This document shows positions 39,738 through 41,239 of a stretch of 64,000 nt of DNA, piece by piece; within the stretch, counting starts at the first letter, position 1, and the number at the start of each line of letters is the position of its first letter. Below the pieces are notes generated by a model. It made no database searches. It had not been told where the DNA came from and worked only from the letters and a program-made list of their open reading frames with translations. Source of the stretch: Escherichia coli (GTDB lineage: Bacteria; Pseudomonadota; Gammaproteobacteria; Enterobacterales; Enterobacteriaceae); assembly GCF_013122565.1 (NCBI RefSeq), contig NZ_CP053258.1. One strand, written 5' to 3'. Made by a program: the position numbers and the translations under genes.

Positions 39738-40100
39738 ATGTTTCTAAACTATTTCGCGTTAGGAGTGCTGATCTTCGTCTTTCTGGTGATTTTTTATGGA
39801 ATCATCGCGATACATGACATCCCTTATCTGATTGCCAAAAAGCGCAACCATCCCCATGCCGACGCTATTCATACGGCGGGCTGGGTGAGCCTGTTTACTC
39901 TGCATGTTATCTGGCCGTTTCTGTGGATTTGGGCGACGCTCTATCAACCGGAGCGCGGGTGGGGCATGCAGTCACATGTTGCGTCGCAGGAGAAAGCGAC
40001 TGACCCGGAAATCGCCGCACTTTCTGACCGAATTTCCCGGCTGGAGCACCAACTCGCCGCCGAGAAAAAGACTGACTATTCCACGTTCCCGGAGATCTAA
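39738..40100 (+). CDS. yibI: DUF3302 small inner-membrane protein
   Basis: 120 aa ORF, two TM helices; paralog of yiaW in this window. Confidence 0.85.
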
Positions 40101-40102
40101 TT

Positions 40103-41239
40103 ATGGATCTATTGATTGTTTTAACTTACGTGGCGCTGGCGTGGGCGGTCTTTAAAATCTTCCGCATTCCAGTAAATCAGTGGACGCTGGCGACGGCGGC
40201 GCTGGGAGGCGTGTTTCTGGTGAGTGGTTTGATTTTGTTGATGAACTACAACCACCCTTACACTTTTACCGCGCAAAAGGCTGTGATAGCGATCCCCATC
40301 ACGCCACAGGTGACGGGAATTGTTACTGAAGTCACTGACAAGAATAATCAGCTTATTCAAAAGGGCGAGGTACTTTTTAAGCTCGACCCGGTTCGTTACC
40401 AGGCGCGAGTTGACAGACTTCAGGCTGACCTGATGACGGCGACGCATAATATAAAGACGCTGCGCGCCCAGCTCACTGAAGCGCAGGCCAACACCACCCA
40501 GGTTTCAGCGGAGCGCGACCGTCTGTTTAAAAATTATCAACGTTATCTGAAAGGCAGCCAGGCGGCGGTGAATCCGTTCTCGGAACGTGACATCGACGAT
40601 GCGCGGCAAAATTTCCTCGCGCAGGATGCGCTGGTGAAAGGCTCGGTGGCGGAGCAGGCGCAGATCCAGAGCCAGCTCGACAGTATGGTTAACGGCGAGC
40701 AATCGCAGATTGTGAGCTTAAGAGCGCAACTTACTGAAGCAAAATATAATCTTGAGCAGACTGTCATTCGCGCGCCGAGCAATGGCTACGTTACTCAGGT
40801 ACTGATCCGCCCAGGCACATACGCAGCTGCCTTGCCGCTGCGTCCGGTGATGGTCTTCATCCCCGAGCAAAAACGGCAAATTGTCGCCCAATTTCGGCAA
40901 AACTCGCTGTTACGTCTGAAACCCGGCGATGATGCGGAAGTGGTGTTTAACGCGCTACCTGGGCAGGTGTTTCACGGCAAACTGACCAGTATTTTACCTG
41001 TCGTGCCAGGCGGTTCTTATCAGGCGCAGGGGGTATTGCAATCATTAACGGTCGTGCCCGGCACGGACGGTGTGCTGGGAACCATTGAACTGGACCCTAA
41101 CGATGATATCGATGCCTTACCCGACGGCATCTACGCCCAGGTGGCAGTTTACTCCGACCATTTCAGCCATGTTTCGGTGATGCGTAAGGTGCTGCTAAGA
41201 ATGACCAGTTGGATGCATTATCTTTATTTGGATCATTGA
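40103..41239 (+). CDS. yibH: HlyD-family periplasmic adaptor (membrane fusion) protein
   Basis: 378 aa ORF with N-terminal TM and coiled coil; paralog of yiaV. Confidence 0.85.

Follow-up and report, generated by a model that had tools for sequence, protein, structure and literature searches.

The stretch analysed here is a 64-kb window of Escherichia coli DNA (64,000 nucleotides (nt) of contig NZ_CP053258.1), and it carries two gene pairs, yibIH and yiaWV, each encoding a small DUF3302 membrane protein followed by a periplasmic adaptor. The gene order is mtlA(-), yibI, yibH, yibF, selA, selB, aldB, yiaW, yiaV, yiaU(-) and yiaT. On the plus strand, yibI (39738..40100) encodes a 120-amino-acid (aa) DUF3302 protein, as judged from its open reading frame (ORF), Pfam match, hydropathy and RefSeq annotation. 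yibH (40103..41239, +) starts 2 nt after the yibI stop codon and encodes a 378-aa EmrA-type periplasmic adaptor of the membrane fusion protein (MFP)/HlyD family, assigned by ORF, Pfam, AlphaFold2 and Foldseek. In the second pair, yiaW (47942..48265, +) encodes a 107-aa DUF3302 protein and is a yibI paralog (ORF, BLAST and Pfam), and yiaV (48271..49407, +) begins 5 nt after the yiaW stop codon and encodes another 378-aa EmrA-type adaptor, a paralog of YibH (ORF and Pfam). The four ORFs lie where a sequence-only reading of this DNA had placed them.

Two long-diverged copies of one operon

yibIH and yiaWV represent a single conserved two-gene operon with translational coupling, present in two copies that diverged long ago. 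The sequence-only reading had described small proteins nearly identical over their first 80 aa, adaptors with a virtually invariant C-terminal 40 aa and frequent synonymous differences, and it had taken the pairs for old paralogs under strong purifying selection. Protein and codon alignments of the two modules bear this out, since the pairs are clearly related and combine low non-synonymous divergence (dN) with a saturated proportion of synonymous differences (pS). YibI and YiaW are identical at 84 of 113 positions (74%, E=8e-62), with 74 of 80 identical at the N-terminal end. YibH and YiaV align without gaps and share 292 of 378 residues (77%); at their C-terminal end 39 of 40 are identical (the difference is M371V). 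By the Nei-Gojobori method, yibH and yiaV have a saturated pS of 0.78 and a dN of 0.176, and the first 80 codons of yibI and yiaW give a pS of 0.78 and a dN of 0.057. The last 40 codons of the adaptor genes hold 16 synonymous vs. 3 non-synonymous differences (pS 0.64; proportion of non-synonymous differences, pN, 0.03). Because pS is high in every segment of 40 codons (0.66-0.93; at least 0.64 with the C-terminal end included), no gene-conversion tract is visible. DNA identity between the copies is 69%, and a blind repeat search returned three blocks that recur after 8168-8204 nt with 73-84% DNA identity. Similarity sets in 9 nt ahead of the ATG, with none further upstream, so the upstream regions are unrelated.

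The divergence between YibH and YiaV is concentrated in helix 1 of the alpha-helical hairpin (57% identity) and in a loop of the beta-barrel (60%), and the two operons also differ in their promoters. This distribution suggests sub-functionalisation of the two E. coli copies and not redundancy.

Each copy has its own conserved synteny block. Among the fetched loci, the mtlA-yibIH-yibF-selA block occurs in Escherichia, Citrobacter, Klebsiella, Raoultella, Enterobacter, Leclercia, Lelliottia, Yokenella, Pluralibacter and Atlantibacter, and the aldB-yiaWV-yiaU-yiaT block is limited to Escherichia, Citrobacter and Pseudocitrobacter. Enterobacter and Lelliottia have aldB and yiaU directly side by side. 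A neighbor-joining tree of the adaptors, drawn without support values, places the YiaV clade (Escherichia, Citrobacter and Pseudocitrobacter) outside a group that contains the YibH clade together with the single-copy adaptors of Serratia, Rahnella, Buttiauxella and others. The great age of the duplication is thus read from saturated synonymous sites, the branching of the tree and the separate synteny blocks.

Purifying selection on both copies is strong. Between E. coli and Citrobacter amalonaticus the dN/dS ratio (non-synonymous to synonymous divergence) is 0.019 for yibH and 0.022 for yiaV, and compared with K-12 the window has no non-synonymous change in yibI, yibH or yiaV and two in yiaW. 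At a query coverage of at least 80%, yibIH is core in E. coli (5383 of 5426 complete genomes); yiaWV is found in 3769 of the 5426 and absent from 1657 (~30%). In two inspected E. coli strains IS1-bounded deletions extend from the yiaW region to yiaO (locus L090, ~7001-7770; locus L001, 22640-23346). A published clone from a macrophage-evolution experiment carries IS1 at nt 263 of yiaW, and the yiaW region is thus a repeated IS1 target. Some Citrobacter genomes have a third DUF3302-adaptor pair, beside genes for an EAL/CSS-motif protein and an AraC-type regulator (L065 8001-9481 and L067 1089-2572).

The DUF3302 protein

Both small proteins match Pfam DUF3302 (PF11742) over almost the whole 77-position model, YibI with E=2.7e-41 and 140 bits (model positions 1-76) and YiaW with E=2e-43 and 147 bits (1-77), against a gathering threshold of 32 bits. 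The domain covers aa 3-78 of YibI (39744..39971, +) and aa 3-79 of YiaW (47948..48178, +). Members of the family are built from two hydrophobic helices, a conserved basic loop ([13 protein letters not shown]), a variable linker and a short terminal helix with a conserved 3-4-3-4 hydrophobic spacing. In YibI the hydrophobic helices lie at about aa 5-25 and 47-68 with the conserved loop between them, and the C-terminal tail carries the short heptad helix. Twelve residues are invariant in 26 diverse members (L3, L8, P29, A33, H38, P39, A43, W49, S51, W59, P60 and W65). A metal-binding role for the His-rich loop was set aside, as H38 is the only invariant histidine.

Comparison with solved structures gave only weak matches (E ~1e-3), over 49 membrane-helix residues, to cyanobacterial chloride-pump rhodopsins, and these were regarded as compositional. 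Homology to AaeX and YdhI (DUF1656) was likewise rejected, with BLAST E values above 0.3 and an hhalign probability of 0.5%, the latter a weak test in which the DUF1656 profile consists of two sequences. YtcA has no detectable relation to DUF3302, and PADLOC and PHROGs gave no match for either DUF3302 protein.

Fold, membership and conservation of the adaptor

In each pair the second gene codes for a periplasmic adaptor from the EmrA/MdtN/AaeA branch of the MFP family (HlyD family; TCDB 8.A.1). YibH and YiaV match Pfam CusB_dom_1, HlyD_D23, HlyD_3 and Biotin_lipoyl_2. The AlphaFold2 model of YibH (36-row alignment, mean pLDDT 82) contains helices at 2-19, 26-50, 97-152, 161-218 and 355-374. 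It has the lipoyl (barrel-sandwich) domain of MFP proteins, with strands at 53-94 and 221-265 interrupted by the alpha-helical hairpin 97-218, and, after the second lipoyl half, a beta-barrel with strands at 277-350 and a disordered loop at 301-320. There is no membrane-proximal domain. The membrane anchor of the family is also present, in the form of a two-helix hairpin (aa 1-50; helices 2-19 and 26-50; 40103..40252, +) assigned from hydropathy and the model. The N-terminal helices (aa 2-19 and 29-47 by hydropathy) have a mean hydrophobicity of 0.66-0.80 and a moment of 0.05-0.14. The alpha-helical hairpin, two helices of ~57 residues each (40391..40756, +), was delimited by AlphaFold2 and the EmrA alignment. 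The C-terminal 40 aa of YibH ([40 protein letters not shown]; 41117..41236, +) comprise the last beta-strand and an amphipathic, basic helix (aa 355-374, hydrophobic moment 0.35). The corresponding parts of YiaV are its membrane hairpin (aa 1-50; 48271..48420, +; from hydropathy and alignment), its alpha-helical hairpin (aa 97-218; 48559..48924, +), whose helix 1 shows the greatest divergence from YibH, and its C-terminal 40 aa (49285..49404, +).

The best Foldseek matches of the model are the EmrA chains of EmrAB-TolC (8zal/8zar, E=4e-21, TM-score ~0.6), followed by MacA, AcrA and MexA, with alignments of 300-346 columns. EmrA is also the best sequence-profile match among solved structures (E=6.5e-23), and the hairpins of YibH and E. 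coli EmrA can be aligned with no gap other than one of 2 residues. Among other E. coli proteins, MdtN is the closest paralog of YibH and YiaV (27-29% identity, E=1e-22 to 1e-24). YibH scores 113.5 bits against a cut-off of 390.8 for EmrA/EmrK (TIGR00998), 110.9 against 376 for MdtN (NF007785) and 75.1 against 400 for AaeA (NF007850). YiaV gives similar scores, all below cut-off. The generic TIGR01730 cut-off is passed by YibH only (99.9 vs. 94.9). With scores so far below the cut-offs of the EmrA/EmrK, MdtN and AaeA equivalogs, the adaptors form a distinct subfamily. PADLOC and PHROGs searches with the adaptors returned only marginal coiled-coil matches or families without known function.

Family-wide, conservation in both proteins is highest in the membrane-embedded and membrane-proximal parts, and the hairpin is variable in sequence and length. 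In comparison of YibH with eight distant relatives, identity is 54% in the membrane hairpin, 51% in the C-terminal helix and 25-27% in the alpha-hairpin, which is ~60 aa shorter in many of these lineages. The motif MRKxLLRMxSW at the C-terminus is conserved throughout, and the invariant C-terminal 40 aa seen between the E. coli paralogs is a hallmark of the whole adaptor subfamily. Within Enterobacterales the hairpin tip segment (YQRYLxGSxAxVNPFSExDID) is nearly invariant, and we take it to resemble the TolC-docking tip motif of AcrA and MacA. To our knowledge, conserved membrane anchors are not a known feature of ordinary adaptors. Because these membrane parts are the best conserved, it can be argued that those of the adaptor and the DUF3302 protein pack together.

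Operon structure and neighborhood across the family

DUF3302 forms 819 clusters at 50% identity in a library of 1.8 billion proteins. Enterobacterales loci were taken from the best 80 matches of a genome-collection scan, in which all matches were Enterobacterales; ten distant contexts were gathered singly, so the census of distant lineages is small. In 76 Enterobacterales loci the adaptor gene lies immediately 3' of the DUF3302 gene wherever the sequence suffices, and the ten distant contexts have the same order. The latter include Colwelliaceae, Psychromonas, Vibrio xiamenensis, Aquipseudomonas campi, a metagenome-assembled genome from Pseudomonadota and a contig with PSCyt2, PSD1 and DUF1501 genes, which we take to be typical of planctomycetes. 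Intergenic distances are -1 to +5 nt for 33 of 35 pairs (full range -1 to +23 nt). Apart from a handful with an extended, truncated or cut ORF call, the Enterobacterales loci encode an adaptor of 378 aa.

AcrB, EmrB, MacB, AaeB, YdhK, MdtO, TolC and MdtP were searched by BLAST against all ORFs of ~88 loci (up to 8 kb on each side) and of the window. No ORF of the window matches any of the eight. Genes for resistance-nodulation-division (RND) or FUSC/PET pumps were found neither in the window nor in the ~88 loci, and none of these regions has an inner-membrane transporter gene of RND, ATP-binding cassette (ABC), major facilitator superfamily (MFS) or FUSC/PET type contiguous with the module. 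The observation from the sequence-only reading that no pump or channel gene is linked to either pair therefore stands for the window, and the lack of a contiguous transporter gene extends to every family locus examined. The matches that did occur are few. One locus has an EmrB-like MFS gene 4.8 kb from the module on the opposite strand, and in the Enterobacter-like locus L072 a same-strand MFS gene lies ~0.5 kb beyond the adaptor stop codon with a 113-aa ORF intervening. MacB-like matches cover the ABC ATPase domain only and lie 3-6 kb from the module on the opposite strand. On one uncultured/metagenomic contig an OEP (TolC-like) gene directly follows the adaptor gene (L003 4038-5417), forming a three-gene unit without a pump gene. 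The constant pairing of DUF3302 and adaptor genes and the lack of a contiguous pump indicate that the two-gene module is the conserved unit.

A gene for a DUF3313 (PF11769) lipoprotein adjoins the module in four independent loci, in variable position and orientation. The organisms are Enterobacter sp. kpr-6, Biostraticola, Franconibacter pulveris and Aquipseudomonas campi, and the genes (L072 7193-7861, +; L079 7254-7922, +; L058 9626-10294, -; L086 9802-10473, -) encode a lipobox such as LSGC or FAGC. Neither E. coli module is adjoined by such a gene. The DUF3313 lipoprotein may be a recurrent partner of the module.

Surroundings of the two operons in E. coli

yibIH is flanked by the divergent mtlA, encoding a phosphotransferase system permease, and by yibF, encoding a glutathione transferase. 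In the window yibF follows directly after yibH (41240-41309); in K-12 an 8.3-kb RhsA island (rhsA, yibA, yibJ, yibG and others) lies between the two. Of 5426 complete E. coli genomes, 5425 match the 3-kb region around yibIH (annotated mtlA, yibI, yibH and yibF) at 95-99% identity, and the stretch from the end of mtlA to yibF is unbroken in only 1523 of the 5425, which fits an insertion at the yibH/yibF junction in most strains. yiaWV lies between aldB (aldehyde dehydrogenase) and the convergent yiaU (LysR family, "LpsR"), followed by yiaT (MipA-family outer-membrane protein). The stop codons of yiaV and yiaU overlap at 49404-49407, and a consensus scan of this junction shows no terminator-like site. 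Convergent transcription could link the expression of yiaV and yiaU. Promoter and terminator consensus scans gave counts equal to the shuffle expectation, with no usable site upstream of yibIH or yiaWV, and an Rfam scan of 36000-53000 found no RNA family.

Two further differences from K-12 were seen nearby. The distance from selB to the likely aldB start is ~0.6 kb (45249-45860), and the K-12 gene yiaY (L-threonine dehydrogenase) measures 1152 bp, so yiaY is missing or a remnant in the window; in strain ET201 a partial yiaY is annotated at this position between selB and aldB. Adjoining yiaT, a 667-aa gene resembling GH127 beta-L-arabinofuranosidase (51362-53365, -) occupies the site where K-12 has sgbE and pseudogenes, and synteny of this GH127-like gene extends to Citrobacter, Klebsiella and Raoultella loci.

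Published phenotypes and annotation

Few phenotypes have been published, and they point towards the cell surface. Expression of yibI is induced in urine, and deletion of the gene in uropathogenic E. coli lowers adhesion and gives a competitive index of 0.33 in urine (PMC5404293). Deletion of yibH in Klebsiella reduces the number of plaques formed by evolved phages (PMC11796411), and deletion of yiaW is cited as increasing Ca-mediated transformation (cited in PMC12844161). The neighboring yiaU encodes LpsR, a regulator of lipopolysaccharide genes; regulation of yiaWV by yiaU was considered and rejected, as the ChIP-exo and RNA-seq study of this regulator lists yiaT, waa and adeP and makes no mention of yiaVW (PMC9068703).

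The genes, their family assignments and the orphan status of the adaptors are already in public annotation (RefSeq, the K-12 record and TCDB, where entry 8.A.1.1.4 is cited as listing YiaV as an uncharacterised adaptor; cited in PMC10971958). The present finding therefore adds no new object. What is new is the family-level picture of DUF3302-adaptor pairing without a contiguous pump.

Discussion

Tentatively, we regard the pair as most likely a self-contained inner-membrane and periplasmic unit that docks TolC, with a DUF3302 protein dedicated to adaptors of this subfamily. The support comes from the operon structure, the adaptor fold, the conservation pattern, the locus with an OEP gene, the lack of a linked pump, the dN/dS of ~0.02 and the envelope phenotypes. 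The DUF3302 protein would reside in the inner membrane and form a functional unit with the adaptor. By analogy with EmrA, adaptor oligomers would form a tube and dock TolC, or an outer-membrane factor encoded alongside, through their hairpin tips; the inner-membrane or periplasmic face would thus be connected with the outside. Entry at the membrane might be formed by the helices of DUF3302 and the adaptor themselves, or by a recruited unlinked pump. In a more far-reaching version, which we consider unlikely, the DUF3302 protein and the two-helix-anchored adaptor would represent an unrecognised class of tripartite envelope conduit whose inner-membrane component is a DUF3302/adaptor-hairpin oligomer and not an RND, ABC, MFS or FUSC pump, and which docks TolC-type channels, possibly with the DUF3313 lipoprotein in some lineages.

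Several points weigh against a self-contained unit. We know of no precedent for a passive or pump-less conduit among characterised adaptor systems. An outer-membrane factor gene lies nearby in only one of the ten distant contexts. The AlphaFold2 model of YibI-(GGGGS)6-YibH, built from 21 naturally paired rows (mean pLDDT 73), gives the membrane helices of both parts no higher confidence than the adaptor-only model, and the predicted topology of DUF3302, with a cytoplasmic loop and both termini outside, derives from hydropathy and the positive-inside rule only. The absence of yiaWV from ~30% of genomes together with repeated IS1 insertion indicates that this copy is dispensable, and a yiaW insertion mutant had no phenotype in one reported macrophage assay (PMC5495878).

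Other explanations were weighed on the same evidence. YibH and YiaV may possibly, though we think this rather doubtful, be conventional adaptors that bridge an unlinked MFS, FUSC/PET or ABC transporter to TolC, with DUF3302 as no more than a small accessory subunit, a role that AaeX, YdhI or YtcA may have for their pumps. The EmrA-like fold and hairpin length fit such a role. Their closest E. coli paralogs (MdtN, YdhJ, AaeA and EmrA) work with, or are encoded beside, an inner-membrane transporter, three of the paralog operons also begin with a small protein gene, and TolC is itself unlinked to most of its partners. However, the ~88 loci hold no RND or FUSC/PET homologue, their MacB-like matches are distant ATPase domains on the other strand, and just two have an MFS gene, neither contiguous. 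Persistent unlinking across several orders would be unusual for an adaptor-pump pair, and the strong conservation of the adaptor membrane anchor and of DUF3302 fits a dedicated membrane partnership. That the module is not an export device at all, but an envelope-organising or stress-related complex in which the adaptor fold serves as a periplasm-spanning scaffold (e.g., contacting peptidoglycan, an outer-membrane protein or a lipoprotein), seems improbable to us, as the solved structures at the head of the Foldseek list are all tripartite-pump adaptors, an OEP gene occupies the operon position in one locus and the hairpin tip is nearly invariant in Enterobacterales. A scaffold would agree with reported phenotypes that concern the surface (adhesion, phage plaquing and transformation), with the DUF3313 lipoprotein gene adjoining the module in four loci, with a hairpin that varies by ~60 aa across the family and with the synteny of yiaT and yiaU (LpsR) with yiaWV in all eight fetched YiaV-clade loci, as in the window, although the yiaU study reports no effect on yiaVW.

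The remaining two explanations concern the history of the copies. One or both pairs could be decaying relics without function, as the patchy occurrence of yiaWV and its IS1-mediated loss in at least two strains might suggest, but the four ORFs are intact, dN/dS vs. Citrobacter is ~0.02 with 0-2 non-synonymous changes per gene vs. K-12, yibIH is present in nearly all genomes and the adaptor keeps its 378 aa in nearly all Enterobacterales loci; we therefore hold decay to be very improbable, and for the copies in this window it is refuted. The same orientation of the copies and their distance of 8.2 kb would suit a recent segmental duplication or copies kept alike by gene conversion, to which we assign a negligible probability. 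The synonymous sites already refute it, with uniformly saturated divergence that includes the invariant C-terminus; the DNA is only 69% identical between unrelated flanks, both copies occupy their own synteny blocks in Citrobacter and Pseudocitrobacter, and in the tree the two copies separate earlier than Enterobacteriaceae do from Serratia- and Rahnella-like genera.

The yibIH and yiaWV adaptors are among the few E. coli adaptor subfamilies without a known partner, substrate or phenotype-defining assay. The family analysis narrows the question to whether DUF3302 and the adaptor form a complex through their membrane parts, whether this complex engages TolC and whether it needs a pump. If it is true that no pump is needed, the known repertoire of TolC-linked machines would be extended.

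Comparison with known adaptor systems

Small membrane-protein or lipoprotein genes stand at the start of three E. coli adaptor operons of this branch (aaeXAB, ydhIJK and ytcA-mdtNOP), and the small proteins fall into at least three groups without detectable mutual similarity: DUF1656 (AaeX and YdhI), YtcA and DUF3302. The aaeXAB and ydhIJK operons, which encode a DUF1656 protein, an adaptor and a FUSC-family transporter, share with yibIH and yiaWV the order of a small two-helix protein followed by a tightly coupled adaptor, and their adaptors AaeA and YdhJ are homologous to YibH and YiaV (24% identity, E=1e-15 to 1e-18). However, DUF1656 is not similar to DUF3302, the third, FUSC-type gene has no counterpart beside yibIH or yiaWV, and the hairpin of YibH and YiaV is ~50 residues longer than in AaeA and YdhJ. 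The membrane anchor also differs, with two predicted N-terminal hydrophobic helices in YibH and YiaV and one hydrophobic stretch after a basic N-terminus in AaeA.

In mdtNOP a small gene likewise precedes the adaptor gene; K-12 mdtNOP is preceded by ytcA, a putative lipoprotein gene (L095 5629-5904), and encodes the adaptor MdtN, the PET/FUSC-like MdtO and the outer-membrane factor MdtP. No MdtO- or MdtP-like gene is linked to yibIH or yiaWV. EmrA of EmrAB-TolC (8zal/8zar, 4tko) shares the domain order of membrane anchor, lipoyl domain, long alpha-hairpin and beta-barrel, lacks a membrane-proximal domain as well, and has a hairpin equal in length to that of YibH to within 2 residues. Identity between EmrA and YibH or YiaV is ~20% only. 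We take EmrA, like AaeA, to be single-anchored; the features that set YibH and YiaV apart from EmrA are two predicted N-terminal hydrophobic helices, a conserved amphipathic C-terminal helix, a preceding DUF3302 gene and a locus with no emrB-like gene alongside.

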